Assembly (NCBI GenBank): GCA_017307785.1
Contig: JAFKGI010000012.1
Coordinates: 64,001 to 128,000, forward strand
Reading direction: 5' to 3'
DNA: 64,000 nt
Source of the DNA: Vulcanimicrobiota bacterium
GTDB lineage: Bacteria; Vulcanimicrobiota; Xenobia; Xenobiales; JADMJV01
A program made the position numbers and the translations under genes. Of this stretch, positions 1,369-52,871 are shown in pieces (within the stretch, counting starts at the first letter, position 1; each line of letters opens with the position of its first letter). The notes below the pieces were generated by a model. The model was given only the letters and a program-made list of their open reading frames with translations. It was not told the DNA's origin and did not search any database.

Positions 1369-3015
1369 ATGAATGTGAAGCCGATTTTGATCGCCGGAGC
1401 AGGCCCGGTCGGTCTGACCCTCGCCTGCGAACTCGTCCGCCACGGCGTTCCCGTGCGAATCGTCGACCGCAATGCGGAACCGACCGATAAATCCAAAGCT
1501 CTGGTCGTCTGGCCGCGCACGCTGGAACTGCTGGAAAAGACCGGAGTAGCCCAGCGCTTCCTGGAATCCGGGGTGCCGCTACGAGGCATGAGCATGTACG
1601 AGAGCAAGGAAAAGCGCATCGCTCACGTGACTTTCAGCGACCTGGAAACCCCCTGGCCTTTCGTTCTGGGACTGCCTCAAAGCGCTACCGAGGCCCTCCT
1701 CATCGAGCATCTGGCCGCTCAGGGCGTTCAAGTCGAACGTCAGGTCGAGGTGGTGGGCCTCAAGCAACACGGGAGCCACGTCGAGGTAGAATTGCGACAC
1801 GCGGACGGCCGCACGGAAATCACCTCGACCCACTGGCTGCCCGCCTGCGACGGAGCCCGCAGTTCGGTTCGCCACAGCCTGGGAGTCTCGCTGGAAGGGG
1901 ACACGGTCGCTCAGGAATTCTCCATGATCGACTGCGACGTGGCCGGCCTTCCCCTGAACGACGAGGTCGTGGCTTACAACACCGCCAACGGCCTGGCCGC
2001 TTTCTTCCCCATTCGAGACTCCAGAATGCGCGTCATTATCATGCGCAACGAGTGTGGAGAGGGCGCCACTCCCGCACCACCGACCCTGGAGGAAATGCAG
2101 AGCGAACTGGAGTTGCGAGGACTGGACCACATTCGCTTGAGCGATTCCCATTGGCTGGCAGCCTTTCGCATCAATGAGCGCCATGCCAAAAGCTACCGAC
2201 ACGGACGAGTCTTGCTGGCGGGCGACGCCGCCCATGTACACAGTCCCGTCGGCGGACAGGGCATGAATACCGGCATGCAAGACGCCTTCAATCTGGGTTG
2301 GAAGCTGGCGCTCATCGAAAAGGGGAAAATTGCCGCCGAGCCTTTCCTCGACTCCTACTCCTTGGAACGACAACCCATCGGAGCCTCGGTCGTCCAGCAA
2401 ACCAGCCGGGCCCGCAAGGCGATCACTCTGCGCAACCCCCTGGCCAAAGGCTTACGTAACGCTCTCCTGAGCTTCGCGGCCTCCTTTGAATTCGTTCGCC
2501 ACAAAATTGCCGAGCAAGCCTCCGAACTGGCGGTACGCTACCCCAAGAGTCCACTCAACCGTGAAGTCCACCCGGGTAACGCAGCCTGGCTTTTGGGCCA
2601 CGGTGTGCATCCCGGCGACCGGGCTCCCGACGGCCACTTGCTGAAAGACGAGAACGAAGCCCATCTTTTTGGCCTGATGTCGGATACTCGTTTTCATCTG
2701 CTGGTTCTCTCCGGGCTGGCTCCTGGAGAAGCCAATCCGGCGGCCCTGGAATGCGCTCGCTGGGCCAACGACGAGCTGCACCAACTGGTCGGGGTCCACT
2801 GGATCGGCTTTGACCCCCACCATCTCCCATCGCAACTCCCGTCCGCCTGGTGGGATGAGGGCAGCCTCATCCACAAGCGCTACGGAGCTGTGGAAGCAAC
2901 CCTGTACCTGGTGCGACCGGACGGCTATGTGGCCTTCCGCAGCCAGCCGGCCGTGCGCGCCGACCTGGAAAAATACCTGGCCGACCTTGGCCTTTATCGA
3001 CCCGTAACGGCCTGA
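1369..3015 (+). CDS. FAD-dependent aromatic-ring monooxygenase (PheA/TfdB-like)
   Basis: N-terminal GxGxxG dinucleotide fold (ILIAGAGPVGLTLACEL), the DG..S..R motif and the GDAAH...G FAD fingerprint (LLAGDAAHVHSPVGGQGMNTGMQDAFNLGWKLA); 548 aa. Confidence 0.85.
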   Translation: MNVKPILIAGAGPVGLTLACELVRHGVPVRIVDRNAEPTDKSKALVVWPRTLELLEKTGVAQRFLESGVPLRGMSMYESKEKRIAHVTFSDLETPWPFVLGLPQSATEALLIEHLAAQGVQVERQVEVVGLKQHGSHVEVELRHADGRTEITSTHWLPACDGARSSVRHSLGVSLEGDTVAQEFSMIDCDVAGLPLNDEVVAYNTANGLAAFFPIRDSRMRVIIMRNECGEGATPAPPTLEEMQSELELRGLDHIRLSDSHWLAAFRINERHAKSYRHGRVLLAGDAAHVHSPVGGQGMNTGMQDAFNLGWKLALIEKGKIAAEPFLDSYSLERQPIGASVVQQTSRARKAITLRNPLAKGLRNALLSFAASFEFVRHKIAEQASELAVRYPKSPLNREVHPGNAAWLLGHGVHPGDRAPDGHLLKDENEAHLFGLMSDTRFHLLVLSGLAPGEANPAALECARWANDELHQLVGVHWIGFDPHHLPSQLPSAWWDEGSLIHKRYGAVEATLYLVRPDGYVAFRSQPAVRADLEKYLADLGLYRPVTA

Positions 3016-4478
3016 ATACGCCCCTCCAGCCGAGGGGAAACGACCTTGTGACGGTGCAGATATTCGATCAGGGCCACTCCCTCGGCGGGGGCGTCGTGCG
3101 GTTCCACCAGCAGTCTGGCCTTGGGCAGCATTTCGTAACCACAGCCGCCCTTGCGGATAAACTCACTGCAGGCGAACGTGTAAGAGCCGTCGGGCTGAAG
3201 CGGTTTGCCGCCCACCCTCAGTTCTTGCACTCGCTGGCCCACCGGGCGGGTGGGATCATACCGTAGTTGCAACGCGGACACCTGAGGAAAAGACGAGTTT
3301 TCCGGTCCAAGCGAGCTGACGGAATGCTCCACCACCGCAAGCAGTTCTCGACCGCTAAGCCGCACCTTAACCACTCCATTTTCATAGGGCAAAATCATCA
3401 TCGCCTGGCGGCGAGTCAACACGCCGGCCGGGACCACTTTGTCGACTCGGATGCTGCTCCCGGTAATCAACGCGCAGTCCGCTCCTGCCTGTTCGCGCAT
3501 GGCGTCCGCCACCAGGTTGCCCAGGTTGGTTTCCTGCTGGCGGCACACCGACGAGCGCCCCTCCAGGTCCACCCCCACCCGCACCAGAGGCTCGTTTAGC
3601 TGGGCCGCCAACTGCTTTTCGTAGCGAGCGGCCAGTGCCGTCACGGTGGGGTCCGGCACCACCGTCTTGCCGACCGACTGGCCTTGCCAGTCCATCTCCA
3701 CCACCCGACCCTGGTCCACCTGGAGGTCCACCTTGCCGAGGATGCGCGCATCACTTCCCCATTTGAAGATCGGAGTGTGGGCCACCAGCGACTCGGAGGG
3801 CTCGTGCTCGTGTCCGCCCAGGATAAGGTCGAGCGGCACCTCTCGAGCCAACCGCTTGTCCTCAGCCAGACTGAGATGAGTCAAGGCCACCACCACCTGG
3901 GCCCCCTGAGCTCGCATGCGAGGCACCAGGGACCTGGCGGCCTCCACCGGGTCCTGAAAGACAACCTCCGGCCCGCAACTGGAAGTCTCGGCCGTATCGA
4001 CGGTCAGCAGTCCAAAAATGCCGAGCTTCACCCCACCCACTTCGCGCATCACAAACTCCGGCATCTTTCCAAAAGACGCCCCGGAGCGGTCGCGCACGTT
4101 GGCCGCCAACCAGGGAAAGTGAGATTCCCCCATGCGCTCGCGCAACACGTCCGGCCCAAAGTCGAATTCGTGATTTCCCAACGTGGCCACGTCGAGGTGG
4201 ATGGCGTTCCACATCTCCACCATCTGACGTCCGCGAAAGAAACTGGAGGCCACCGACGGGCTCAGGGTATCTCCCGAGAAAAGAAAGAGGGTGTTGGGAT
4301 TGGCGGCTACGGCCTGTCGGCGCAAAGTCTCCAATCGTGCAAAACTGCCTTTGCGACCATCGTCCACGCTGGCATATTCATAGACGTCGTTCAGGTGAAG
4401 CAGGGTGATGTGAGTGGGCTCAGCGAGGGCCGGGACTGTCAACCCCAGGCCGAGCAAAAACAGGACTTTTCTTAGCAT
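2994..4478 (-). CDS. bifunctional metallophosphatase/5'-nucleotidase (UshA-like), secreted
   Basis: Signal peptide MLRKVLFLLGLGLTVPALA; calcineurin-like metallophosphatase motifs (LHLNDVYE, GNHEFDFG) plus a 5'-nucleotidase C-terminal region. The ATG at 4478-4476 overlaps the upstream gene's TGA (TGATG), implying translational coupling. Confidence 0.85.
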   Translation of the reverse strand: MLRKVLFLLGLGLTVPALAEPTHITLLHLNDVYEYASVDDGRKGSFARLETLRRQAVAANPNTLFLFSGDTLSPSVASSFFRGRQMVEMWNAIHLDVATLGNHEFDFGPDVLRERMGESHFPWLAANVRDRSGASFGKMPEFVMREVGGVKLGIFGLLTVDTAETSSCGPEVVFQDPVEAARSLVPRMRAQGAQVVVALTHLSLAEDKRLAREVPLDLILGGHEHEPSESLVAHTPIFKWGSDARILGKVDLQVDQGRVVEMDWQGQSVGKTVVPDPTVTALAARYEKQLAAQLNEPLVRVGVDLEGRSSVCRQQETNLGNLVADAMREQAGADCALITGSSIRVDKVVPAGVLTRRQAMMILPYENGVVKVRLSGRELLAVVEHSVSSLGPENSSFPQVSALQLRYDPTRPVGQRVQELRVGGKPLQPDGSYTFACSEFIRKGGCGYEMLPKARLLVEPHDAPAEGVALIEYLHRHKVVSPRLEGRIQAVTGR

Positions 4479-5353
4479 CAAGCCTGGAAGATGCCCCATT
4501 CGCCCCAGGAATGAAACCAACTCTGCAACTCGGGGGCACCAACCGTCGGATACTTACGCACAACCCGCTCGATGGCCTGGCTCAGCTTTTTCCCCGCGAA
4601 GAGGTCCTTCAGCATGAAGAAGCTGCTCTCGGGCAACACCACGCGGTTCATTTGGAAACCCTTGCGCATGATCAGCACACGCTGGGGGGACCGGGCTGGC
4701 TTACTCGGGCTCAGTTCGCCATCCACCTGAAAAAGATAATGCGAAACGGGATAGTCGAACTTGAGCAAGCGCGAGGTGGGTCTGGGGCGCAAAATCAGCT
4801 CATCCCAAGCAGCCGGTGGGAGCGACTGCAAGTCTTCAGCCTGCAGCGCCGGCAGCTCCGGCTCGTCGAACACCTGGGCCAAATTTAGCTCCAGCGTGGC
4901 CAGTTGTTGTAAAAAGGTCCGGCCCCGCAGGGAGCTGCGCGCGAGGAAAGCGGGAAAGTGCATTCCCAGATGATTGAGCGTCCAGCTGCTGGAGGGATGC
5001 TCCTCGACATAGCTCATCACCAGCTCTTCGAAAGCTTCGGGCCCCAGAGTGTAAGCCACTCCCGGAAAATCGATCTGCAGCGATTCGACCATGCGAATGG
5101 GAAACATACTGCGGTAGATCCAGAGGCGACTCTCGGGGTCGAGCCCGTAGCCCTCTTTGATAAAATCTGAGGTTTGGGCCATCGCGTTCTCGAGCCGTTC
5201 GGGCGTACAGGTCACCACTTGCTGGAGCCAGGCTTGCTGCTCACGCAAACTCTGGGCCCCTTGCTTGGAACCGCGGGCAATGCGCACGGGTGACGGGGAG
5301 CGTTCGGGCAACACCATTCCTTTGGCATTCGAGACCACTTCGCGCTCAGCCAA
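4478..5353 (-). CDS. DUF2063-family protein, partner of the DUF692 enzyme
   Basis: A 291-aa protein immediately downstream of, and overlapping, the DUF692 gene. Family assignment rests on the conserved DUF692-DUF2063 gene pairing plus general sequence character; the start is ambiguous (TTG at 5353 or ATG at 5317). Confidence 0.55.
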   Translation of the reverse strand: MAEREVVSNAKGMVLPERSPSPVRIARGSKQGAQSLREQQAWLQQVVTCTPERLENAMAQTSDFIKEGYGLDPESRLWIYRSMFPIRMVESLQIDFPGVAYTLGPEAFEELVMSYVEEHPSSSWTLNHLGMHFPAFLARSSLRGRTFLQQLATLELNLAQVFDEPELPALQAEDLQSLPPAAWDELILRPRPTSRLLKFDYPVSHYLFQVDGELSPSKPARSPQRVLIMRKGFQMNRVVLPESSFFMLKDLFAGKKLSQAIERVVRKYPTVGAPELQSWFHSWGEWGIFQA

Positions 5354-6195
5354 CGGAAGTCACCACCGGTTTCCGGCAAGCAGCCGCCTTGAGCACCTCG
5401 GCGTGAACCACCTCGAAGGGAGGAATCTCGGCATCCCATTCCACCATCGTGCTGCGTCCGCCCATTCGCTGATAGCATTGGGTGTAGAGCGCCCAGACTT
5501 CGTCGATGACGTGGTCATCGTGGGTGTCGACGATGTAGGTGCCATTGTTGGTATGACCGGAAAGGTGATGATAGACCACGTGCTGGGCGGAAATCTTCTG
5601 GATGTATTCTTGGGCCGAGAAGCCGTGATTATAGGAACTGACATAAACATTGTTGACATCCAGCAGCAAACCGCAATCGGCTTCGGCCGTGAGGGCGTTC
5701 AGATAATCCCATTCGGTCAACTGGTCCTGAGCCCACTCCAGATAAGTGGACGGATTCTCTAGAACCAGCGGAACTTCGAGAAAGTCCTGGATGACTTTCA
5801 CCCGTTGGGTGACGTGCGTCAGACTCTCCTCCGTCAGCGGCATGGGCAACAAGTCGTGGGTATTGCGACCCAAAATCCCGGTCCAACACAGGTGATCGGA
5901 GACCCAGCGAGCCTTCACCAGGTTAATCAGGTTCTTGAGCAGCTTGAGGTACTCAAAATCCACCGGATCGGTGCTGCCGACCGATAGAGAGACCCCATGC
6001 AACATGACCGGGTAGCGCTCGGCGATCTGCTCGAGCATATAGATGGGACGCCCGCCTGATCCCATGTAGTTCTCCACGATGATCTCAAAGAAATCAATCG
6101 CCGGCCAATGCTGCAGGATGTGGCTGTAGTGCACGGTGCGCAGACCCATCCCAAATCCCAAATCCGGGAATCCCCACTTGTTCGCAATGCTCATG
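5346..6195 (-). CDS. DUF692 (UPF0276) multinuclear non-haem iron oxidase (MNIO, MbnB/TglH-like)
   Basis: TIM-barrel-like DUF692 signature stretches (GLGLR-type start MSIANKWGFPDLGFGMGLR, FFEIIVENYMG, VMLHGVSLSVGS, SDHLCW, LVLENPSTYL). ATG at 6195 with a GGGAAAG ribosome-binding site upstream; the ORF track extends it to a GTG at 6242. Confidence 0.75.
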
Positions 6196-6276
6196 CCGAG
6201 TTCTTTCCCGCCAGGGCCTCGACCCCCCTTGCAGTCCGGCACAAGGAGTTGCCCTGGGCAGAGCTAACCTTGGGCG

Positions 6277-6741
6277 ATGTCGATGGTTTGCCAGGCTTGC
6301 GGTGTGGAAGCCCCCACTCGCAAAGTCCAGTTTCACAAACACACCGGTATGTTGATCATGATGCAGCATGGTCAATTCGGGGGGAATCTCTGTAAGCGCT
6401 GCATCGGAAAGTACTTCACCAAATTTACGGGTTGGACGGCGGTGGCCGGGTGGTGGGGAATGATCTCTTTCTTCATCACGCCCTGCGTCTTGCTCTGGAA
6501 CACCGGGCTCTATCTGAGCACTCTCGGTTTGCCAGCGCCGGCTCCCGGAGCGGAACCACCGCGCCTGACCCAGGAAGCCGTGGACAAGCTAGAGCCTTAC
6601 GCCGACAGGCTTTTTTCCGCCCTGAATTCCGGCAAGCCTCACAAACAGGTCGCCGACGAGATTGCCGCCCTGGCCGGCGTAACGCCGGTGCAGGTTCTGC
6701 TCTATGTATCGGCAGTTGTCGAGTCTTCCAAGGACGGCTGA
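6277..6741 (+). CDS. membrane protein with N-terminal double CxxC zinc ribbon
   Basis: ATG at 6277; CQAC...CKRC motif followed by Trp-rich hydrophobic segments (WTAVAGWWGMISFFITPCVLLW). Divergent from the DUF692 gene. Confidence 0.4.
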   Translation: MSMVCQACGVEAPTRKVQFHKHTGMLIMMQHGQFGGNLCKRCIGKYFTKFTGWTAVAGWWGMISFFITPCVLLWNTGLYLSTLGLPAPAPGAEPPRLTQEAVDKLEPYADRLFSALNSGKPHKQVADEIAALAGVTPVQVLLYVSAVVESSKDG

Positions 6742-6844: not shown

Positions 6845-8593
6845 ATGAGAGGCTTTCCGGGATTCGTGAACCAGAAGATGGGCGGAGCGCCCTCCGCTCC
6901 CTCGTTGCCGTCCCCCGCCTCGTTGATGCCCAAGGCGCCGCTACTCAGCCCGCCCAGCCTACCCCAGGTTCCGATGCCGGCCCGCCCGCTCGTGACCTTG
7001 CCCAGCATTCCGGTCGCGCCTGTGGTGGTGGTGCCCGTCGTCCGCACCGTCACGGTGGCCACCGTGACCCGCAATTTGATGGCCGCCCTGGGCCCCGAAG
7101 CTCCGCCCCCGGCCCCCACCAGACAAGGATTTCCCGGCTTTGTCTCGCGCAATTTCAATCAGGTCAGCCAGCATCGGCCCGGCGCCAGCAGCGAGAATCA
7201 CCTGGATGGATTGGCCAAACTCTTCAATAGCCCCATCCCCGCTCCGCCCGAACGGCGTCAGGCCAATCGTGCGAGTGCTCCGGAGCGTCCGCAGGTCGCC
7301 ACCAGAACTGCCGCCCCGCCCGCCAAACCGCCCGTGGCCGCCCCAGTGTCGGTACGGAAACCGGAAGCTCCCAAAGCGCCTTTGGTCCCGAACAAACCCG
7401 CTGAACCGGTCAAGCAACCCCTGCTTGAGCAACGCAAACCGGCGCCGCCACAGCAAGTCCCCAAGCCCACAGTTCCACCTGCCCCCGCGCAAGCGCCCGT
7501 GGCCAAAACGCCCGAAGCCCCTAAACAACCCCTCGCGCCCGTCAGGCCTCAACCGGAGTTGGAGAAGAAAGCAGCCCCCGTAGGAACGGACCAGGCTGGG
7601 AAAGCTTCCACTAAACCGGTGTCCCCGAAAGCCGAAGTGCCCCCGGCCCGAGTTGCCGCCACAACCACGCCCGAAGCCCCCAAGAACGAAGGGAAAGTCG
7701 AGCCCAAGGCTCCGGTTGCCGAGACGCGCCCGGTGCGCGAAGCCGAACCAAACAAGCCTGGTCAGGACGCGAAACCCTCCGAGCGAGTAGAAGCGCCGGC
7801 AGGGGTGAGTAAAGAGCCGGTCGCCGTCCCGACCTCGGCGGCGCGAGTGTTGCCTGCTGCCACCCTGGAGAAAGTGGCCCAGGTACGCCCCGAAGTCAAC
7901 GAAATGAAAATTGGCGAGGCCCAGCGACAGCAGGTCAACTCTCTGCAGGCTCCCGTGAGCCGCGAACAAATGGCCTTGATCCAAGAGAACGGCGCGGGCC
8001 TTTCGGCCGGTGGCGGTTCCGGCCAGGGCGGCGGAGGCGGCCAGCAAGGTCGTCAACGTCGGCGTCAAAATGGCGAAGAAGGCCTGGACGAGGTTGGCGG
8101 CGCCGAACCTCTGGGCGGCGACGACCAGGTCCAGTGGTGGCATCTGCGTGGAGAGGACAACCTGCGCGCCCTGTCCTCGGAACTGCGCGAGGCCATGTTT
8201 TTGCTGCGCACTCCGCAGCGCCCCCTGGGAACCGACTTTCAGCAAGCCCGGACCTCCAAGTCTCTCCGCGAAAAAGCTCAGGTTGAGCAGCCTCAGCGGC
8301 AGGTCCTCCAGCAGGAAACGCCCCAGGAAAAAGGGGACGGAGTCGACCTGGCAGACGGCGAATTTTGCTCCAGATGTAACGAAGAGCTGGGCGGAGTCGA
8401 TCCTCGCCGCTGCCCCGTCTGCCTCCACGAAAGCGCCCAGGCGATGTTGGCTCTGCTGCAGCAAGACGGCCAGTTTCTTGCCTACCGCCTCTTCCTTACG
8501 GCCTGCCGTCAGGTGGTGGCTTCTCGCGCCGTCTACCGCCTGCGCGACTTCAGCAGTTTGCCGAGCGGCGCCTACTGCGTGCAGGCGGCTTAA
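6845..8593 (+). CDS. proline/alanine-rich low-complexity protein with C-terminal zinc ribbon
   Basis: ATG at 6845. Duplicated GFPGFV(N/S) motif at residues 3-8 and about 94-99, a long KP/PxxP-rich spacer, a Gly/Gln-rich tract, and a C-terminal CSRC...CPVC ribbon. The antisense 501-aa ORF is Gly/Arg-rich and judged spurious. Confidence 0.5.
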   Translation: MRGFPGFVNQKMGGAPSAPSLPSPASLMPKAPLLSPPSLPQVPMPARPLVTLPSIPVAPVVVVPVVRTVTVATVTRNLMAALGPEAPPPAPTRQGFPGFVSRNFNQVSQHRPGASSENHLDGLAKLFNSPIPAPPERRQANRASAPERPQVATRTAAPPAKPPVAAPVSVRKPEAPKAPLVPNKPAEPVKQPLLEQRKPAPPQQVPKPTVPPAPAQAPVAKTPEAPKQPLAPVRPQPELEKKAAPVGTDQAGKASTKPVSPKAEVPPARVAATTTPEAPKNEGKVEPKAPVAETRPVREAEPNKPGQDAKPSERVEAPAGVSKEPVAVPTSAARVLPAATLEKVAQVRPEVNEMKIGEAQRQQVNSLQAPVSREQMALIQENGAGLSAGGGSGQGGGGGQQGRQRRRQNGEEGLDEVGGAEPLGGDDQVQWWHLRGEDNLRALSSELREAMFLLRTPQRPLGTDFQQARTSKSLREKAQVEQPQRQVLQQETPQEKGDGVDLADGEFCSRCNEELGGVDPRRCPVCLHESAQAMLALLQQDGQFLAYRLFLTACRQVVASRAVYRLRDFSSLPSGAYCVQAA

Positions 8594-12124: not shown

Positions 12125-15100
12125 ATGAACTCGGCGCCAGTTAAAATCTCGAAGGCCGCCCGATTGCTAGCGGAATTGCTAGCAGTCAGCGGCCTTTCTC
12201 TTTCCAAGCCGGCCTGGAGCACCGGACTACGGGCTTACGCGCGCACAGCCGATGCCACCCTGCCGAGCGGCGACCTCGACCCGGTGTTGCAGGAATTGAT
12301 CGACCACAACCTGGTCGTGCGCAGCAACGACCAGGTGAAATTGCTGGATCGATTCTATGAAGACATCATCCTGCAGATCCGGAAAGAACGAAGAGCCGGG
12401 CTCGCCTCCAGCGCGCTCTTCGACCACGTATTCCCATTACTCAGCAGCCCGTTTGATAAAGCCCAGGTCAATTTTCGCACCAGCCTGCTTTTCGGCACCG
12501 CCCGCTATGTCAATCAGAGCTATCATCAATTTGAAGGGGCGGCCGGCAAACCCCGCGAGCTGGCCCAGATCGCCCGCGGCTGGCTTCACGCCGAATCCTT
12601 CCAGCAGGTAGACTCGCGGTGGCACCAGGCCTTGCTGGAGAAGTCCCTGGAATGGGCGGTGGAACATTGCGAGGAGGCTCCTGGAGCGGTCGCTTTCTGT
12701 GAGCGCCAATCGCAACTGAACAACCAGGTCCTGCTCTACCTCGGCCTCTACTGGTTTATGCGAGGCAACGACGAGCAGACCAAGAGATTTTTGCAAGCCG
12801 CCAACCGCATACCCAGCCTTCCGGGACTGGTAGCCTTTGACCTGAAGCGCTACGACATCGCGGTAGAGTCGTTTGCTCAGGCCGCCAGTCGCACCGAGAA
12901 CCCCGTCCTTTACCTACCCGTGACCCGGCTGACGCGCGTGCTCTGCCTGCTGCGCAAGGGGGACGCTGCCCAGGCGCAAACTTGCTGCGGGCCCGACAAC
13001 CAGGGAGTTGACCCCTGGCTGCGCTGGCTCTGCGACCAACGGCAGGGCAAGGCCCGTCACTCACGTCCCTCCTACAGTGCGGCGGAAATGACCAGCTCCC
13101 TGTGGCTGACGGTCGCCAGCTGTGCTTTGACCGTCAACGACCGGGAACTGCAATCCCAGCTCCGCGAAAGCGGCGAGCAACTCGCTCAACAGGCCCAATC
13201 GCAAGGCTTTCTATGGGTCGAGCGCCAGGTTCGACGCTTCCTTCACAAGTTTGATCACGCTCGAGCCGAGTGCAGCCCCTGGGACTGCGTGGTGCCCGAA
13301 CAGCCCTGGAAGTTACGCCTGAAACAGCTGATGGACCTGGCCCAAAAGCCACGTATCGAACCAGAAGAGCGCATCATCTGGACGGTCAGACCGGTGGCGG
13401 CCGGCTGGGAAGCCGTTCCCAAACTGCAGAGTCAGGCCAAGCGCGGCGGATGGTCCAAGGGTCGCCAGCTAGAATTGTTCCGCACCCCGCCTCCCTGCGC
13501 CGATGAATACGACCTGCGTGTTTTCCGCCAGGCACTGGCGCGCAACTTCACCTTGAGCGATGTCTTTCATTCCCTGGTCGGCCATCCTCGCGTCTTTCAC
13601 GAAGACACGGGCCAGCAGATCGAGGTGGTGGAAGGCCGCCCCGAATTCCAGGTCAACAAGGGCCCCAACGGTCTGGCCGTGCGTATTTTGCCCAGTTGCC
13701 TTGACTCCAGTGGTCAGGTCTTGGAAATGGTGGGACACACCAGCCTGAAAGTCTACCGGTTTGATCCGCTTCTCCGGGAGTTTAGCGAGATTCTCGGCGA
13801 CGGCCTGGAAGTGCCCGAAAGCGAGCAGGCCGCCGTGCAGTTACTGCTCGACAAGCTCCCCGCCGAATTTGCGATTGCCTCCGACCTGGCCAGCGACGCC
13901 GTTCAGGAAGTAGCCGCCGACGCGACCCTTTATCTCCGAATCCGTCCGCTGCGTGAAGGCCTGGAGCTCAACATGCTGGTGCGTCCTCTGGGCAGCGACG
14001 GTCCCGAATACCCGCCGACCCACGGGGGTCAGCGAGTTCTGCTGCGGCAGCACGGACGTCGTGTGCAGGGAGTGCGCAACCTGGAGTTGGAAAGCCAGGC
14101 TTGCCAGGCGGTCCTGGACGCCTGCCCGGGCTTTGGTCCAGAGCAGGGAACGGCTCACTGGGTTACCACCGATCTGTCGGCCAGTCTCGAGGTGCTGGAA
14201 CAGGTCGGACGCCTGCCACCCGAAGCCCTGACGGTAGAGTGGCCTGAGGGCCAGTCCATGCGCATCCGCCACCGTGTCAGCGGAGAGAATCTGCGCCTGC
14301 AAGCCGAAACCCAGGGGGAATGGTTCAACGTTCAAGGCCAGCTGGAGTTGTCGGCCGAGGAACATTGGCACCTTCAGGAACTGCTCGAACGAATGCGCAA
14401 CCAGACGAGTCGCTTCATCGCCTTGGGCTCAGGAGAGTTCCTGGCGCTGACCGAAGAACTGCGTCGCCGCCTGGAGGAATTGACCAACCTGGTCGAGCCG
14501 TCCAAAGGCAAGGCCATCAAGGTCCACGGCCTGCTGGCCGGTGCCCTCCAAGAAGTGGCCCCGACGGAGGGCGACGAGTTTTTTCAGCAACGCCTGGCCA
14601 GGCTCAACGACAGCCAGTCGATCAAGCCTCCGCTGCCCAAGACCTTTCAGGCCGAGTTGCGTGGTTATCAGCAAGAAGGCTTTGAATGGCTCAGCCAGCG
14701 CGCCCACTGGGGCGTGGGAGCCTGTTTGTCAGACGACATGGGCCTGGGTAAAACCCTGCAGACGCTGGCTTTGCTGGTGCATCGAGCTCCTCTAGGACCC
14801 GCCCTGGTGATCGCCCCGACCTCCGTTTGCGGCAACTGGCTGGAGGAGGCACGCCGCTTCGCGCCTACCCTGCGCGTACACTGGCTGCTCGACGGAGAAC
14901 GCCAGACGATCGTGGAAAAAGCGGAAGCCTTCGACGTCTTGCTGGTGAGCTACGGAGTGGTGGTGCGCGAAATGAAGATTCTCAGCGCCCGCACCTTTGC
15001 CACCCTGGTGGTGGACGAGGCCCAGGCCATCAAGAATCACGCCACCCAAAGATTCCAAGCGGTGCTGAAGATCCCCAGCGACTTCCGCGTGGTGACCACT

Positions 15101-16012
15101 GGAACTCCAGTAGAGAATCGCCTGGAAGAACTGTGGGCGCTGTTTCGCTTTCTCAATCCCGGCCTTCTGGGCAGCCTCGAACGCTTCCGCGAGCGCTTCA
15201 TCGCCCCCATCGAGGCGGGTCAGGCACAGGCTCGCCAGCATCTCAAAAAGTTGGTGCATCCGTTCCTATTACGCCGAACCAAGACGCAGGTTCTCCATGA
15301 ACTACCGGCACGCACGGACATCACCCTGGAAGTACCTCTCAGCCCTGCGGAACGAACCTTCTACGAAGCTCTGCGCACCCGTGCTCTGGAAAAACTGAAC
15401 GGCAGCGAAATCGAAGCCATGCAGGTATTGGCCGAACTGACCCGCCTGCGCCGTGCCTGCTGCCACCCCTCGTTGGTGGAGCCGAAGAAAAAAGCGGGTG
15501 AAGGCTCCAAGCTGGAGGCCGTGCGGGAATTACTCCATGACATGCGTCAGGGTGGTCATCGAGCCCTGATCTTCAGCCAGTTCGTAGACCATCTCCAGCT
15601 CCTGCGCCAGGAACTCGACCAGCAAGGACTGAGTTACCAGTACCTGGATGGCACCACCCCGGCTCAGGAACGCCTGCGTCGGGTCAAGGCCTTCCAGGCC
15701 GGTGAGGGTGACGTGTTCCTCATCAGCCTGCGAGCCGGTGGCTTCGGGTTGAATTTGACCGGCGCCGACTACGTGATTCACATGGATCCTTGGTGGAACC
15801 CGGCGGTGGAAGATCAAGCGTCGGATCGAGCCCATCGAATCGGCCAGCAGCGACCGGTCACCGTCTACCGACTGGTGGCCAAAGACACGGTGGAAGAGAA
15901 GATCCTGGCGCTGCACAGGCAGAAACGAGAATTGGCTCACGGTTTGTTAGAGGGAGCCGAAGAAGGAGTGCGTTTGAGCGCCGGCGAGTTGCTGGCTCTG
16001 ATGCAGGCATAG
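12125..16012 (+). CDS. SNF2-family DNA-dependent ATPase/helicase with bacterial SNF2-associated domain (paralogue 1)
   Basis: DEXD motifs (LSDDMGLGKTLQTLALLV, VVDEAQAIKN, TGTPVENRLEELW) and a helicase-C region (ALIFSQFVDHL, LDGTTPAQER, ISLRAGGFGLNLTGADYVIHMDPWWNPAVEDQASDRAHRIGQ). The middle region (VEWPEGQSMRI...GEWFNVQGQLEL) resembles the bacterial SNF2-associated domain; 1295 aa. Confidence 0.85.
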   Translation: MNSAPVKISKAARLLAELLAVSGLSLSKPAWSTGLRAYARTADATLPSGDLDPVLQELIDHNLVVRSNDQVKLLDRFYEDIILQIRKERRAGLASSALFDHVFPLLSSPFDKAQVNFRTSLLFGTARYVNQSYHQFEGAAGKPRELAQIARGWLHAESFQQVDSRWHQALLEKSLEWAVEHCEEAPGAVAFCERQSQLNNQVLLYLGLYWFMRGNDEQTKRFLQAANRIPSLPGLVAFDLKRYDIAVESFAQAASRTENPVLYLPVTRLTRVLCLLRKGDAAQAQTCCGPDNQGVDPWLRWLCDQRQGKARHSRPSYSAAEMTSSLWLTVASCALTVNDRELQSQLRESGEQLAQQAQSQGFLWVERQVRRFLHKFDHARAECSPWDCVVPEQPWKLRLKQLMDLAQKPRIEPEERIIWTVRPVAAGWEAVPKLQSQAKRGGWSKGRQLELFRTPPPCADEYDLRVFRQALARNFTLSDVFHSLVGHPRVFHEDTGQQIEVVEGRPEFQVNKGPNGLAVRILPSCLDSSGQVLEMVGHTSLKVYRFDPLLREFSEILGDGLEVPESEQAAVQLLLDKLPAEFAIASDLASDAVQEVAADATLYLRIRPLREGLELNMLVRPLGSDGPEYPPTHGGQRVLLRQHGRRVQGVRNLELESQACQAVLDACPGFGPEQGTAHWVTTDLSASLEVLEQVGRLPPEALTVEWPEGQSMRIRHRVSGENLRLQAETQGEWFNVQGQLELSAEEHWHLQELLERMRNQTSRFIALGSGEFLALTEELRRRLEELTNLVEPSKGKAIKVHGLLAGALQEVAPTEGDEFFQQRLARLNDSQSIKPPLPKTFQAELRGYQQEGFEWLSQRAHWGVGACLSDDMGLGKTLQTLALLVHRAPLGPALVIAPTSVCGNWLEEARRFAPTLRVHWLLDGERQTIVEKAEAFDVLLVSYGVVVREMKILSARTFATLVVDEAQAIKNHATQRFQAVLKIPSDFRVVTTGTPVENRLEELWALFRFLNPGLLGSLERFRERFIAPIEAGQAQARQHLKKLVHPFLLRRTKTQVLHELPARTDITLEVPLSPAERTFYEALRTRALEKLNGSEIEAMQVLAELTRLRRACCHPSLVEPKKKAGEGSKLEAVRELLHDMRQGGHRALIFSQFVDHLQLLRQELDQQGLSYQYLDGTTPAQERLRRVKAFQAGEGDVFLISLRAGGFGLNLTGADYVIHMDPWWNPAVEDQASDRAHRIGQQRPVTVYRLVAKDTVEEKILALHRQKRELAHGLLEGAEEGVRLSAGELLALMQA

Positions 16013-17844: not shown

Positions 17845-20800
17845 ATGAGCTCGAAGAATGCCTCGGGGGGAGTGGCGGAGACACCTGTGCCCTCGGCGCG
17901 CTACAAGGCGTTGGGCTCCCTGATCCACGGTTTGCTCGAACGCCTCGAAGATCACAACCGGATCCTCTCTCAACTGAAAAGCGCCCACTGCAATCCAAAG
18001 ACCGTCTATTGGGAATTGCCGGCCTTCGTCGCTCCCCTGCTGGGCCAGCTGGCCATGGAACTGAAGGCCGCCACCGAAGAACTCGGTGGCTGGCTTTTTG
18101 TCGAAGAGCTGGCCAGAGCCATTGCCTCCGAGAAGAATGTGGTGGGCAATCTCATTCGGTTGGCCTCGCTACTGCAGGCTTTTGGCTGTCGACTGGCCGA
18201 GGGCAAAGTCATCTGCACCGACGCTTCTCGTTTGGAATTGATTGACCACCTGCGAGCCAGTGGGCAGGTACCCGGACCTCTGAGTCATTTAGAAGCCAGC
18301 AGCAGAGCTTTTTTCGGTCGCCAGGTAGACGAGAAGACTCTGGCTTCCCTGATTGGACAGACACTCTCTCCGGGTGTGGTAGCGGAGGTGGACCGGAAGC
18401 CGGTCGTCTTCAGCCTGGACCGTCCCCCATCGTGCCGCGATCTTTTGCTCGGCTGTCTACGTCTCTGGAAAGGTCCCCTCAGCTTACGGGAGTTGTTGAC
18501 ACGGCTCAAAAGGCTGGAAGCCTTCCAGGCCACCGCCCTGGAACTGGAAATGGAAGTCCACGGCCTCAAAGCCGAAGGGAAAGTCGGCGAGCGCGAAGGC
18601 CTTTTCTTCTTAGAAGACAGCCATCCCGACCCATCGGACCCGCAAAGCCCGGCCGAAGTAGCTGACCTGGTCTTCCAGACCTTGTTTGAGATCGCCACAG
18701 CCGATGGTGTCGTCCGGCCTGAAGAGATGACTTTGATTGGCAACCTGCTGGCGGTCGAATTCGAACTACCCGCCGACGTCCGTGAACCCTTCGAGACCTT
18801 GCTGGGGATGGCGGTCCATCGTTCTCTCAATCATCGGCAACTGGGGCAGTCTCTATCGGCCAAGAAGCTGGCTAGCTTTTCTCAAGAGTTGCGAGACCAC
18901 GTGTTCCGCGGCGCGGTTGCGGTTGCATTCGTGGACCTGGAGATTCACGAACACGAGCGGCAGGCTCTGGAGGTGGTGGCCAAACGCCTGCGTACCTCCC
19001 TGCCGGCCCCGGCGGTGGTGGAGCGTTTCGGGGAGATGTGCCGCCCACCTTACGTGGACTACGCTTACTTCGGCATTCTCCCCGACCGCTACGATCCTGA
19101 TCGCTTGCATCACAAATTGCTGATTTTACAGAATCACTACCTGGAGAAGCTGGCCGGAGACAACCGACCCCCCGCTCAAGAGGTGGAACGACTGCAGGCT
19201 CTGCTGGCGGAGTTTTATCGCGGGATGCCTTCTTTGCCGGCCCCGTGGCTGGTGGGCCTGGACCTGAAAAACCCCGTCCTGCCGCTTCACAGTCTGCGGC
19301 CGCTGCACTGCTTTTTGCGCGTGGCCCGCAGCGACGGGCCTCTGAACTCGGTCGAGTCGCAAACGATCGCGCGGTTGGTCCGAGGCAGCTTGCACGACCT
19401 TCAGGATCGCGCCCTCTGGAATCTGCAAACCCGCCCTCTGGCGGAGCTGCACATTCCCGCCCCGGAACCGGAAGAACCGGACCTGCGGACACTCAGCTTC
19501 AGCCTGGTGGTGGCCCTTTGCGATGGTCCTCTGAACGTGGAGAAATCCCGCGAATTGCTGTCCCTGGCCAGCGACCTGGGGGTGTCCGAGCGCAGCTTTC
19601 AAGTCCTGCATCAACTGGAGCAGGCCGCCAGGCGTCACCTGCAGGAAGACCCGGGACTGGAGCAGCTCCAGCGTTTGGAGCTGGCTCTCGAGGCGGCCGA
19701 GCGTCTGCCTCGAGACTCGGCCCCACCTTCGGCCGTAGCCACTCCCCTGGTCCTGCCGGATTTACAGCCCGGGGGCCATCCTTACCTGGTCGTCATCCGT
19801 CCCTCGGGTCGGCACAATTTTATTGTTCACCTGCGCGTCCGTTCCGAACTCAATGACGTGCCCTTCCTGCAAGAGCAGCTGAACGCGGCAATCGAGGCTC
19901 GTCCCTGGTTACGCGACCAGTGCGCCGGTAGAAGTTGGTTCCTTTGCAAGGGAGTCAGCAACTGCCTGAGACTATTGCAAGAAGTAAAAGAGAGCCCCTT
20001 CGAAGTGCAGTGGCCTCACGGTCAGCCTTTCCAGGTCCTGGGAAAAGCCGGCCTGCACAACTTGAGAGCCACCATCGGCCAGAAACAGGGATGGTTCGAG
20101 ATCGGCGGCAAGCTTCAGCTAGGACAGGGCCATCAGATCGGTTTATTGGACCTGCTCGACCGCGTCCGGCAGAACCCCGAAGCCATCGCCGTAGCTCCCG
20201 ACACCTTCGTCCAGCTTGACGACGCGCTGCGTTCCCAACTGGAGAAACTCAACTCGCTGCTGCCGGAGGGACTGCACGCGTCCACCATCGACCCCTTGAG
20301 GGCACGCCTGGTGGCCGGCCAGGTCCACTTCTTTGAAGATCAGACCAACAATCACGAGTTCTCGCGCCTGGCGGCCCTGATCGAGGAAGCCGGAGAACTG
20401 AAACCCGATCTCCCGGCCGAGCTTTGGGAGAGACTGCGAGACTACCAGAAAGAGGGTGTGGAGTGGATGCTGCGCACCCTGCACGCCGGATTGGGAGCCT
20501 GCCTGGCCGACGACATGGGACTGGGCAAGACTCTGCAAACGCTTTGTGTGCTCTATCACCGTCGCGCCCAGGGGCCCAGTCTGGTGGTGGCGCCCACTTC
20601 GGTCACCTACAACTGGAAAGAGCAAGCGCAACGCTTCCTGCCGGATCTGCGCGTGTTGCTCTACGAAGGTCCTGGCCCTGTCCGTCACCTGGCCGCCGAA
20701 AAGCTGGATGAATACGAAGTGGTCGTGGTCAGCTACGGGATTTTTCACAAAGACCACGCTCTACTCGGAGCTCGCGACTGGAACTGCCTGGTGTTGGACG

Positions 20801-21780
20801 AAGCCCAAAAAATCAAAAACCCCTCCTCAGCCACGGCTCGTAGCGCCTTTGACATGAAAGCGCGGGCACGCCTGGCCACGACCGGAACTCCCATCGAAAA
20901 TCACCTGGTGGAACTGTGGAGTTTGATGAACTTCCTCAACCCGGGATTGCTCGGCACGCAGAATCATTTTCGCCAGACCTACCTGACGCGCGGAGACGAT
21001 GCGGCCGAGTCCGACCGCCTCAGCAGACTGCGATCTCAGGTCGGCCATTTCATTCTGCGTCGGCGGAAACAGATGGTGGCTCCGCAACTGCCGGCCAAGC
21101 TGGAGACCGTCCACCGCATCGACCTGAGCAGCGAGGAAAGGGAGTTCTACAACCAGATCCGGCGTGGTGCCCTGCAAATGCAGAAAGAGGACCGCATCAG
21201 CCTGCTGACCGCCTTGACCCGATTGCGCCAGGCCTGCTGCGATCCGGCCCTGGTGGACGAACAATGGACCTCGCCCAGCTCCAAGATTTCAGCGGCGGTG
21301 GAAATTCTGGCCGAAGTCAGTGCGGAGGGGCACCAGATTCTGGTGTTCAGTCAGTTTGTCTCCCTGCTCAATCGTCTCGCCCGCCATCTGGATGAGGAAG
21401 GGCTCCCCTATCGCAGCCTCTACGGATCCACTCCAGTCGAAGAGCGAAGAGCGCTGGTGGACGACTTCCAACAGGGGAAATTCCGAATTTTCCTGATCAG
21501 CTTGAAAGCCGGCGGCACGGGCCTCACTTTGACGCGCGCGGATTACGTTCTCCACCTCGACCCCTGGTGGAATCCGGCCGTAGAAGACCAGGCCACCGAC
21601 CGGGCCCACCGCATCGGGCAGACCCAGACGGTCAATGTCTACCGTCTGATTGCCCGCGAAACGGTCGAGGAAAAAGTGCTGGAACTGCATCAAAGCAAAC
21701 GCGAACTGGCGGAATCGGTGTTGGCCCAAGACGGTTCGCCCAGCCTCCTCAGCGTCGAGGACCTGAAAGCTCTACTGTAA
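17845..21780 (+). CDS. SNF2-family ATPase/helicase with N-terminal TerB-like repeats and SNF2-associated domain (paralogue 2)
   Basis: ATG at 17845 with GAAAGGGG upstream. Four TerB-like segments (FEIATADGVVRPEEMTLIGNLL; FVDLEIHEHERQALEVVAKRL; LRVARSDGPLNSVESQTIARLV; VVALCDGPLNVEKSRELLSLASDLGV). SNF2-associated-like region (EVQWPHGQPFQV...GWFEIGGKLQL). DEXD motifs (DDMGLGKTLQTLCVL, LDEAQKIKNP, TGTPIENHLVELW) and helicase-C (LKAGGTGLTLTRADYVLHLDPWWNPAVEDQATDRAHRIGQ); 1311 aa. Confidence 0.85.
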   Translation: MSSKNASGGVAETPVPSARYKALGSLIHGLLERLEDHNRILSQLKSAHCNPKTVYWELPAFVAPLLGQLAMELKAATEELGGWLFVEELARAIASEKNVVGNLIRLASLLQAFGCRLAEGKVICTDASRLELIDHLRASGQVPGPLSHLEASSRAFFGRQVDEKTLASLIGQTLSPGVVAEVDRKPVVFSLDRPPSCRDLLLGCLRLWKGPLSLRELLTRLKRLEAFQATALELEMEVHGLKAEGKVGEREGLFFLEDSHPDPSDPQSPAEVADLVFQTLFEIATADGVVRPEEMTLIGNLLAVEFELPADVREPFETLLGMAVHRSLNHRQLGQSLSAKKLASFSQELRDHVFRGAVAVAFVDLEIHEHERQALEVVAKRLRTSLPAPAVVERFGEMCRPPYVDYAYFGILPDRYDPDRLHHKLLILQNHYLEKLAGDNRPPAQEVERLQALLAEFYRGMPSLPAPWLVGLDLKNPVLPLHSLRPLHCFLRVARSDGPLNSVESQTIARLVRGSLHDLQDRALWNLQTRPLAELHIPAPEPEEPDLRTLSFSLVVALCDGPLNVEKSRELLSLASDLGVSERSFQVLHQLEQAARRHLQEDPGLEQLQRLELALEAAERLPRDSAPPSAVATPLVLPDLQPGGHPYLVVIRPSGRHNFIVHLRVRSELNDVPFLQEQLNAAIEARPWLRDQCAGRSWFLCKGVSNCLRLLQEVKESPFEVQWPHGQPFQVLGKAGLHNLRATIGQKQGWFEIGGKLQLGQGHQIGLLDLLDRVRQNPEAIAVAPDTFVQLDDALRSQLEKLNSLLPEGLHASTIDPLRARLVAGQVHFFEDQTNNHEFSRLAALIEEAGELKPDLPAELWERLRDYQKEGVEWMLRTLHAGLGACLADDMGLGKTLQTLCVLYHRRAQGPSLVVAPTSVTYNWKEQAQRFLPDLRVLLYEGPGPVRHLAAEKLDEYEVVVVSYGIFHKDHALLGARDWNCLVLDEAQKIKNPSSATARSAFDMKARARLATTGTPIENHLVELWSLMNFLNPGLLGTQNHFRQTYLTRGDDAAESDRLSRLRSQVGHFILRRRKQMVAPQLPAKLETVHRIDLSSEEREFYNQIRRGALQMQKEDRISLLTALTRLRQACCDPALVDEQWTSPSSKISAAVEILAEVSAEGHQILVFSQFVSLLNRLARHLDEEGLPYRSLYGSTPVEERRALVDDFQQGKFRIFLISLKAGGTGLTLTRADYVLHLDPWWNPAVEDQATDRAHRIGQTQTVNVYRLIARETVEEKVLELHQSKRELAESVLAQDGSPSLLSVEDLKALL

Positions 21781-50907: not shown

Positions 50908-52871
50908 CTAGCTTCCTGTTACCACCAGCTTGTCCAGATAAAATCCGTCCTGGCACACGTCCTCATCGGTTTTCATACGGAAACGCAAGCGCAGGTCGCC
51001 GCCGCAGTAAGGAGTGAGATCGTAGCTCCGCTCTTCCCAACCGGTCAGACCTTCGTAGGCGTCCAGTTTGTCCCATTTTTCGCCGTCCCGAGTGACTTCC
51101 AGGGTCACCGAGTCAAAGACTTTCTCCAGATCGTAGCGGCATTCAAAGTCCACCTTTGCTGCCTGGAAGTCTTTCAAAGAAAAGACCCGAGAAGTGATGG
51201 AACCCTTGGCGCCCAGAGCGTACTCCCCGTTGGGACTATCCGTCCACACGGCGCCACGCCCGGGCACTTGCTGCAGACCCCAACCGCCGACTGCCGTCCA
51301 CTGGTCGACTCCCGCGTCCGCGTCTCCCGAGAAGGCAACGTTCGCGGCAGGTACCGAGACCTGGACCTGACCGATGGGGCCGCGCTGGCCGACATTGTCC
51401 ACGGCGCGGGCCGCTACGTACAAAGTGTGATCCTGACCCCGTGGTTGAACCTTGAGGGTGAGCTCCTGCAGTTCTCCCGCTTCGGCAGGCGCCGGGCTGG
51501 TCACCGGCCTGGCCGCCGCAAACTCCTCTTCGCTGGTTATAGGCCGACTTGAATAGCGCAATTCATAAGCGCTGGCCCGACCCAGGTCCCCATCGTCGCC
51601 GGTTGCCCGCCAAAACAGCGGAACCGTGAAGGGAGTCACCCCTTCAGCCCGGAGATCGCGCAATTCTCCGGGAGCAACCGTATCATGCTCCACCGCTTTG
51701 GCGGCATTCAGATGACCGCCGGAAAAAATCTTACCATGCAGTTCCGGACTGCGGTCCACCGCGAAGAAAAGTCGGTCTTTCAGCTCCTGATTGCTGATTT
51801 CTGGAAACTCGGTGACGACCAGCGCAGCCACACCGGTGACCCCGGGAGCCGCCATGGAGGTGCCACTTTTGAAGCCATACTGATTGCCGGGAAGGGTGGA
51901 GTAGATCTTGTCACCGGGCGCGGCCACATGCACGCTGTCCAATCCAAAATTGGAAAAACTGGCCAGTTTGCCTTCGGCGTTGGTCGCCGCTACCGACACC
52001 AAATTGGGAAGGTTATAGCCAGCCGGTAGACGGCCCGCACGTCATTGTTGAAACTATCGTTGCCGGCCGCACAGATGTGCAGAGCCGGGGAAGCTTCCAG
52101 GGCATCAAAAAGAGCTTGACTGTAATTGATCCCGCCCCACGAGTTGGAGGTGATGCGCGCCCCCATCTTGGTGGCATACAAAATTCCCTCAATGGCATCG
52201 GCGGTGTCACCATAGCCCTGGGCCAAAAACTTGACGGGCATCAAATTGGCTTCCCAATTGACGCCGACCACGCCCTGGCCGTTGTTGCCCACTGCTCCGA
52301 TGGTGCCATGCACGTGAGTGCCGTGGCTCCCGTCGTCCATCGGGTCGCCGCTCCTGGCGGCCGCGTTGAAACCGTGTACATCATCGATGACGCCGTTGCC
52401 GTCATCGTCGATACCGTTGCCGGGAATCTCTCCCGGGTTGGTCCAGATGTTGGCGGCCAGATCGGGATGGTTGTAGTCCGCCCCCGAATCCATGATAGCC
52501 ACCAGCGGTCCTCTGGCCTTGCTCCCGTGAGTCACATCCCAGGCGGCTGGAGCATTGAGTTTCTCCATGCCGTAGAGCTTCGGGTCTAAATCATCAGGCT
52601 GAGCGAATTCTTGCAGCAGATAGTTGGGCTCGGCGTACATGACGCGAGGGTCCTTCTTGAGTTCGGCCAGAGCCTGATCCGTCTGGTCAACTTTCAAGCG
52701 CAGAATGGCACCGTCCGAGCGCGCTCCCGGTAAGTCATAGCGACGCAGCAACCGGGCGCCGTGGTCCTGGCAAAATTCACCCAGTTGTACGCGGTCGGAC
52801 TGAACGCGCACCAATACTTCGCCCTCGCGCCGCTGGGAAGCCGGCGCCGGCAAAGAAGACGTGATCTTCAT
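50908..52871 (-). pseudogene. subtilisin-like S8 serine peptidase with N-terminal propeptide and C-terminal beta-sandwich domain, split by a frameshift
   Basis: The upstream ORF (51990..52871) carries the catalytic Asp (IMDSGAD) and His (HGTHVHG) and ends ...ICAAGNDSFNND. The downstream ORF (50908..52002) carries the catalytic Ser (GTSMAAPGV). Translating the adjacent frame recovers ...PAGYNLPNLVSVAATN, so a single-base indel lies near 52024-52044 in a GC-rich run (cggcccgcacg). Confidence 0.7.

Follow-up and report, generated by a model that had tools for sequence, protein, structure and literature searches.

The 64,000-nt stretch of contig JAFKGI010000012.1 analyzed here (the window), from an uncultured Vulcanimicrobiota/Eremiobacterota bacterium, carries three genes head to tail on its minus strand, namely bufB, encoding a multinuclear non-heme iron oxidase (MNIO); bufC, encoding its DUF2063 partner; and nt5, encoding a putative secreted 5'-nucleotidase. 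Profile membership assigns the locus to the Buf2-type bufferin clusters, of which it represents the enzyme half, and comparison with syntenic relatives indicates that its precursor-less state arose through a lineage-specific deletion of ∼0.73 kb, between bufB and a divergent gene for a CxxC protein, which removed the precursor gene bufA2. We think it probable that BufB and BufC now act in trans, on a BufA2 protein encoded elsewhere in the genome.

Family assignment and operon layout

To the family level, the assignments rest on profile searches. The MNIO (ORF 5346-6242) matched PF05114 (MbnB_TglH_ChrH, formerly DUF692) with an E value of 1.9e-104 and 349 bits (cut-off 25), and the alignment covers positions 2-261 of the 263 in the profile. 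Among the NCBIfam models, it scored above the cut-off of the equivalog NF050167, MNIO_BufB (345 bits; cut-off 310), and below the cut-offs of the HvfB, ApyH, MbnB, and ChrH models; this profile membership places it as a BufB bufferin maturase. The protein encoded directly after the MNIO gene contains a DUF2063 domain (PF09836, 54.3 bits; cut-off 27.2), and aligned over its residues 74-279 with the HvfC model NF050145 at 46 bits, against a cut-off of 142. The nt5 product scored above threshold with both PF00149 (41.6 bits) and PF02872 (127.5 bits), its best solved relative being the 5'-nucleotidase chain 2z1a (E 6e-56), and it reached no NCBIfam equivalog cut-off. An earlier note on this DNA had read the three proteins from sequence as DUF692/MNIO, DUF2063, and 5'-nucleotidase, and the Pfam search bears out all three calls.

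Homologs of BufB at E < 1e-20 number at least 8,000, with 60-66% identity among the matches listed. A protein identical to the window BufB is annotated in a "Candidatus Eremiobacteraeota" metagenome-assembled genome (MAG), and relatives come from Vulcanimicrobiota and Xenobia MAGs. BufC orthologs are 57-80% identical across the clade. The features of the locus are as follows.

5346..6194, minus strand: bufB, predicted MNIO (DUF692) bufferin maturase, 282 aa from ATG 6194, with the ORF open back to GTG 6242
4478..5353, minus strand: bufC, DUF2063 partner, with its start at TTG 5353 or GTG 5338
2994..4478, minus strand: nt5, dimetal phosphoesterase of the 5'-nucleotidase family, 494 aa, predicted to be secreted
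6195..6276, no strand: divergent intergenic region of 82 nt with the deletion scar (6194-6261, 68 nt)
6277..6741, plus strand: flanking CxxC gene, outside the system, encoding 154 aa with an N-terminal CxxC...CxxC and hydrophobic segments; left anchor of the deletion

For bufB, ATG 6194 is the likeliest start, with the resulting N-terminus, MSIxNKWGFPDLG (M-S-I/V-x-N-K-W-G-F-P-D-L-G), common to the relatives. If bufC starts at TTG 5353, it overlaps the bufB stop by 8 nt, as the earlier note had it and as bufC is called in the relatives; on identical contigs, gene callers placed the start at GTG 5338, in which case the overlap gives way to a 7-nt spacer. The remainder of the arrangement described in that note, a three-gene operon in which nt5 is translationally coupled to bufC, can be read directly in the sequence, where the nt5 ATG overlaps the bufC TGA as TGATG, with the A shared. 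At its 3' end, nt5 overlaps a convergent gene for an FAD-dependent aromatic-ring hydroxylase (FAD monooxygenase) by 22 nt. On the other side, the gap between bufB and the divergent gene for the CxxC membrane protein, previously put at ∼80 nt, measures 82 nt (6195-6276), and the CxxC protein had no match in Pfam or NCBIfam.

Precursor genes at orthologous loci and the window deletion

We recovered the neighborhoods of 13 further lineages (L numbers) and scored them by tblastn and with a BufA2 hidden Markov model (HMM). The loci that carry a precursor gene are listed below, with BufB amino-acid identity to the window in parentheses.

L005-L008, L027, and L028 (∼89-90%): TPR gene, gene for a 570-aa protein, divergent CxxC gene, 162-166-aa ORF (bufA2), bufB, bufC, convergent FAD monooxygenase gene
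L015, L016, and L026 (90-91%): bufA2 ORF, bufB, bufC, nucleotidase gene
L009 (85%): bufA2 ORF, bufB, bufC, nucleotidase gene
L001/L002 (84%): bufA2 ORF, bufB, bufC, nucleotidase gene
L003 (75%): bufA2 ORF, bufB, bufC
L004 (68%): bufA2 ORF, bufB, bufC
L018, from Acidobacteriota (∼65%, fragmented match): bufA2 ORF, bufB, bufC

A BufA2 gene thus lies directly upstream of bufB in 11 lineages (L001/2, L003, L004, L005-8, L009, L015, L016, L018, L026, L027, and L028), and the sole exception among the orthologous loci examined is L014. In the encoded proteins, which are long (136-205 aa), a signal peptide (…LMSAVMAGLLLGGAQAAQA…) precedes several repeats, of which CKGLNSCKGKGGCATAKHDCKGKNxCKxxGGC is an example. 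They matched NF050166 (BufA2 family periplasmic bufferin-type metallophore) with E values of 1e-12 to 7e-21; three copies exceed the 60-bit cut-off of this model, and five of the closest score 46-59 bits. Judged from these sequences, the clade carries conventional Buf2-type clusters in the canonical bufA-bufB-bufC order, and the precursor gene is ancestral at the window locus. The earlier note had suspected a new, possibly non-RiPP setting for the MNIO (RiPP, a peptide made on ribosomes and modified post-translationally), a suspicion that finds no support in a protein scoring above the BufB cut-off whose orthologs at the loci examined, L014 apart, all have a conventional BufA2 gene next to them. 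The same note had named a conventional precursor gene at orthologous loci, together with a nucleotidase not conserved there, as the outcome that would speak against its proposal; the first part is what the relatives show, whereas the nucleotidase is nonetheless kept in part of the clade, in seven lineages, and wherever its junction was read, it either overlaps the bufC stop or starts within 2 nt of it.

The event at the window locus can be traced by comparison with L005, the relative closest to it in synteny, in which both the divergent CxxC gene and the FAD monooxygenase gene downstream are found again. In a blastn alignment of the two, the homologous blocks end at window position 6262, just beyond the start of the CxxC gene, and resume at 6193, at the start of bufB. 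Between these conserved flanks lie 68 nt in the window and 795 nt in L005, the latter comprising (i) the region upstream of bufA2, (ii) bufA2 itself, and (iii) a GC-rich hairpin followed by a T-run. Because L005 holds bufA2 in 795 nt where the window has only 68, the precursor-less state is a lineage-specific deletion of ∼0.73 kb. The junction is not an assembly artifact: it is identical in seven other assemblies, at 100% nucleotide identity but for one single-base difference, although these assemblies belong to one sample series, represent one strain by DNA identity, and do not count as independent lineages. The stretch between the gene for the 570-aa protein and bufB is unstable in the clade, with the CxxC gene absent in L015 and L001 and represented by a truncated match only in L016 and L026.

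A second species lacks the precursor gene as well. The locus of L014 (MAG ACE_ERE1), whose BufB and BufC are 92% and 80% identical to those of the window, reads CxxC gene, ∼60 nt, bufB, bufC, nucleotidase gene, and no bufA2 was found in its 20.8 kb. L014 is nearer to the bufA2-bearing L015 than to the window in six of the six genes compared, with nonsynonymous divergence (dN) of 0.027 to L015 versus 0.047 to the window for bufB, and of 0.064 versus 0.131 for DUF979. Since L014 groups with a bufA2-bearing lineage in all six genes, bufA2 was probably lost twice independently, though recombination could give the same pattern.

The precursor is missing not only from the gap but from the entire window. 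Neither tblastn with three BufA2 precursors nor a six-frame search with an HMM built from 120 BufA2 homologs found a BufA2 protein in the 64 kb, the best HMM match having an E value of 0.76, versus 1e-42 to 1e-47 for the positive controls. A generic scan of the window for short intergenic ORFs encoding two or more Cys residues and an N-terminus resembling a signal peptide was likewise negative. On these searches and on motif regular expressions, the idea of a precursor concealed in the 82-nt gap, or at any other place in the 64 kb, was rejected. The lack of an upstream precursor ORF reported in the earlier note is thereby confirmed for the gap and extended to the full 64 kb, and the bufABC order, that is, a Sec-signal, Cys-containing precursor gene just before the MNIO gene, is not present in the window. 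A Pfam survey of the 55 largest window ORFs detected no DoxX, copper-resistance, second MNIO, or RiPP-related gene; the missing DoxX counts as normal because Buf2 clusters normally lack it.

Two further observations concern L001. Its BufA2 gene (L001 7306-7923) is uncalled in the annotation on record for this MAG, as small Cys-rich genes often are, with a 717-nt gap in its place, so searches of protein databases under-count such precursors. Directly upstream of this gene (L001 6524-7284; also in L017) lie genes for an extracytoplasmic function (ECF) sigma factor and a small anti-sigma protein.

Substrate of the precursor-less pair

According to the explanation that we favor, BufB would work together with BufC, whose C-terminal part resembles a RiPP recognition element (RRE) in bufferin systems, and in the cytoplasm the two would form 5-thiooxazoles from Cys residues of a BufA2-type protein that is exported by Sec. 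Thiooxazole formation on Cys and copper binding by the product are known only for the Caulobacter bufferins Buf1 and Buf2, with a reported loss of 4.03 Da for each modified Cys (PMC11626156). The substrate gene would now reside elsewhere in the genome and act in trans, the product, once exported, would serve to buffer periplasmic copper, and nt5 would be co-expressed but not directly involved in maturing the peptide. Redundancy with a trans copy would explain why the cis bufA2 gene was lost, and why this happened twice. Published data are compatible with such an arrangement, given that sizeable proportions of bufferin precursor genes are unlinked to MNIO genes, with modification by enzymes at another locus having been proposed; that up to four Buf2 precursor genes occur per genome; and that no genome was found to have Buf2 precursors without an MNIO (PMC12452194). 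Within the clade, L019 carries a stand-alone BufA2 protein, 68% identical to that of L005 and with the clade signal peptide LMSAVMAGLLLGGAQ, with no MNIO within 6-8 kb. The protein search with BufA2 that brought up this copy gave none assignable to the genome of the window.

The stand-alone gene of L019 (P0123; L019 8001-8966) is convergent to a gene for a 123-aa protein with weak EF-hand matches. Buf_EGKC|EF-hand chimeras are described in the MNIO landscape survey (PMC12452194), and the L019 pairing might not be accidental.

Both enzymes appear to be under constraint. The BufB and BufC ORFs are full length in the window, and pairwise ratios of nonsynonymous to synonymous divergence (dN/dS) are 0.03-0.05 for bufB and ∼0.10-0.12 for bufC, the same in pairs with and without the precursor-less lineages. 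The distance of the window to the outgroup L016 is slightly above that of L014 or L015, as it also is for the control genes (TPR, FAD monooxygenase, and DUF979), and the window branch carries no excess of dN in bufB or bufC relative to these controls. Of the positions conserved to 95% or more among 111 distant homologs, the window BufB agrees with the consensus at most, and each of its few departures (for example, W154, S193, S212, and Y220) also occurs in relatives that have the precursor. Among these changes, R205H occurs in BufB of both precursor-less lineages and in that of the bufA2-bearing L015. A test for relaxed selection as evidence of decay gave no signal, but it is weak owing to saturated synonymous divergence (dS).

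Several observations weigh against action in trans. No trans precursor was found, in a search whose scope was 64 kb of the genome; a scan limited to the sigma-70 consensus found no sigma-70-like site in the 82-nt gap (matches inside genes were at chance level); and dS between lineages is saturated (>1), which leaves the deletion undated, so that the low dN/dS values could mostly reflect the time before the loss. In addition, the contigs of the window lineage are all clonal and offer no post-deletion polymorphism for a test, and the BufA2 proteins of the closest relatives fall slightly under the NF050166 cut-off. The lack of a precursor, the lack of a promoter site, and the inability of selection tests to date the loss speak at the same time for the main rival, a decaying remnant in which bufA2 was recently deleted, no other substrate exists, and bufBC are functionless leftovers, such that only nt5 may still matter. 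Consistent with decay, the deletion also took the region upstream of bufA2, where the promoter would be expected, and the region as a whole is prone to deletion, having lost or truncated the CxxC gene in L015, L016, and L026 and nt5 in the L005 subclade. We nevertheless consider a remnant somewhat unlikely, given that both ORFs are full length without a window-specific change at conserved positions, that the window branch shows no excess dN over the control genes, that L014 also keeps bufBC-nt5 intact without bufA2, and that stand-alone BufA2 genes do exist in the clade.

The coupled nucleotidase gene sets the operon apart from described clusters. Its product begins with MLRKVLFLLGLGLTVPALA/EP, which reads by eye as a Sec signal peptide. 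In seven lineages (the window, L014, L015, L016, L026, L009, and L001/L002), nt5 follows bufC; the junction was read at the nucleotide level in six of them, where the two genes meet in TGATG, are separated by 1 nt, or overlap through a GTG start, and in L026 the position was scored from gene calls and tblastn. The gene is absent from the L005/L027/L028 subclade, in which bufC abuts the FAD monooxygenase gene, and from L003, L004, and L018. The next-closest homologs (54-57% identity) adjoin genes for an ABC ATPase and for a weakly M36-like protein (faint Pfam match), not for an MNIO, and a further family at 46-51% identity is large and occurs in Acidobacteriota and others. No Cys residue of nt5 is invariant in 25 homologs, and the window has GGCG in place of the usual GGDG, which is GGVG in L009.

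The metal-binding motifs of nt5 (GD, GNHE, H201, and GGHEH) are present, and motif I (residues 30-33) reads NDVY, so that a Tyr takes the place of the His in the N-D-T-H of 2z1a. All 25 homologs, down to 46% identity, share this Tyr, and the D-x-Y homologs include Acidobacteriota proteins without a link to MNIOs; the motif may mark a subfamily with different metal chemistry.

Could nt5 be a functional part of a clade-specific bufferin system, for example as a periplasmic dimetal enzyme that relies on the bufferin for its metal loading or for protection from copper? In favor of such a role, bufC and nt5 remain tightly joined in six lineages although synonymous divergence is saturated (with nt5 placed after bufC in L026 as well), the junction persists in L009 despite a different downstream neighborhood, and nt5 is under purifying selection (dN/dS 0.05-0.07). 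We nonetheless find the proposal unlikely, because the L005/L027/L028 subclade has lost nt5 while bufA2BC is intact there, bufferin loci at greater distance lack the gene too, its nearest homologs outside the clade lie in unrelated contexts, and nucleotidases go unmentioned in the main text and three supplementary files of the survey (PMC12452194). On the sequence evidence, nt5 is best regarded as an accessory or passenger of the operon that is confined to the clade and not as its substrate, and a functional link between nt5 and copper buffering would be speculation. The earlier note had found the coupling to a nucleotidase unfamiliar among MNIO pathways; its absence from the survey agrees with that impression, whereas the locus is otherwise an ordinary bufferin maturase operon.

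A broader version, to which we give little credence, would make nt5, with its D-x-Y motif, a working part of the bufferin system and have BufBC kept after two losses of bufA2 to act on another, new protein or to fill a role connected with the nucleotidase; if true, this would be the first bufferin-type MNIO/DUF2063 pair kept without a bufferin precursor.

Very unlikely is that BufBC of the window lineage has turned to a new substrate or a non-RiPP use, modifying either nt5 or the divergent CxxC membrane protein: nt5 does have a signal-peptide-like N-terminus, translational coupling to bufC, and the GGCG Cys, and substrate signal peptides have been linked to DUF2063-type partners, with some MNIO substrates being long (PMC12452194), but five lineages (L001, L009, L015, L016, and L026) have it alongside bufA2, so that it does not replace the precursor, and no BufB change at a conserved position is confined to the two precursor-less lineages. 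As a substrate modified at the GGCG Cys, nt5 was rejected on account of the Val of L009 and the lack of any Cys invariant in the 25 homologs. The CxxC protein, which the earlier note had put forward as a candidate substrate, was rejected as well, for it carries no signal peptide and is found together with bufA2 in L005, L009, and L027, while other relatives that have the operon lack it or show only a truncated match.

Other features of the window were noted in passing. On the plus strand at 6845-8593, a 582-aa Pro/Ala/Lys-rich low-complexity protein with a C-terminal CxxC...CPxC segment and no family match is encoded; it is kept beside the operon in relatives and evolves fast (40-66% identity), and the antisense strand of its gene gave spurious weak tblastn matches to BufA2. 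On the minus strand at 50908-52871, two ORFs (51990-52871 and 50908-52002) that overlap by 13 nt correspond to the N- and C-terminal halves of one Peptidase_S8 profile, suggesting that a subtilase gene is frameshifted or split here, or that the sequence contains an error. Two SNF2-family helicase paralogs of ∼1,300 aa with long N-terminal regions are encoded on the plus strand (12125-16012 and 17845-21780), the second with an added TerB domain.

Comparison with known systems

The methanobactin system MbnB/MbnC likewise pairs a PF05114 superfamily MNIO with a partner protein that acts on Cys residues of a ribosomal peptide, whereas the window MNIO reaches only 54 bits with the MbnB model (cut-off 325), and methanobactin has its own partner, MbnC, in place of DUF2063, and its own precursor, which is short, leader-dependent, and devoid of a Sec signal. 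Another known system is HvfA/HvfB/HvfC of non-typeable Haemophilus influenzae (PMC11252979), in which an MNIO and a DUF2063/RRE-type partner act on a Cys-containing exported protein. The window proteins match the HvfB and HvfC models, but far under their cut-offs (258 versus 360 and 46 versus 142, respectively), and the precursors of the window clade are of the BufA2 type, not the DUF2282 type.

The nearest counterpart is bufA2-bufB2-bufC2 of Caulobacter vibrioides (BUF_6/12Cys; PMC11626156 and PMC12452194). As in that cluster, the window MNIO scores as BufB, its DUF2063 partner is encoded tightly downstream, no DoxX gene is present (PMC11626156), and the orthologous loci have a Sec-signal BufA2 directly upstream with repeated CKGxxxC-type motifs. 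The window differs in (i) the ∼0.73-kb deletion that left it without a precursor gene; (ii) the nucleotidase gene translationally coupled downstream of bufC in its clade, which is unreported in the survey; and (iii) the length of the clade's precursors (136-205 aa), several of which score just under the NF050166 cut-off. Further, the ECF sigma/anti-sigma pair of L001 lies beside a Buf2 cluster, unlike in the described systems, where the survey has such pairs in Buf1 only (PMC12452194). The conserved junction of bufC with the nucleotidase gene, which the survey does not describe, is a small lead toward a possible accessory gene of bufferin operons in an uncultured phylum.

Finally, the window resembles the orphan genes of that survey, in which ∼4,000 MNIOs of a large sequence cluster have no known adjacent precursor (PMC12452194). 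These thousands of MNIO genes without a recognizable precursor nearby leave room for claims of new substrates or non-RiPP chemistry. Unlike the survey orphans, the orphan state of the window could be traced to a specific deletion by means of syntenic relatives, and it apparently arose twice in one clade. The window case suggests that at least some orphan pairs are ordinary bufferin maturases whose cis precursor was deleted, probably being redundant with a copy elsewhere, and it advises genome mining to compare orthologous loci before new substrates are proposed.

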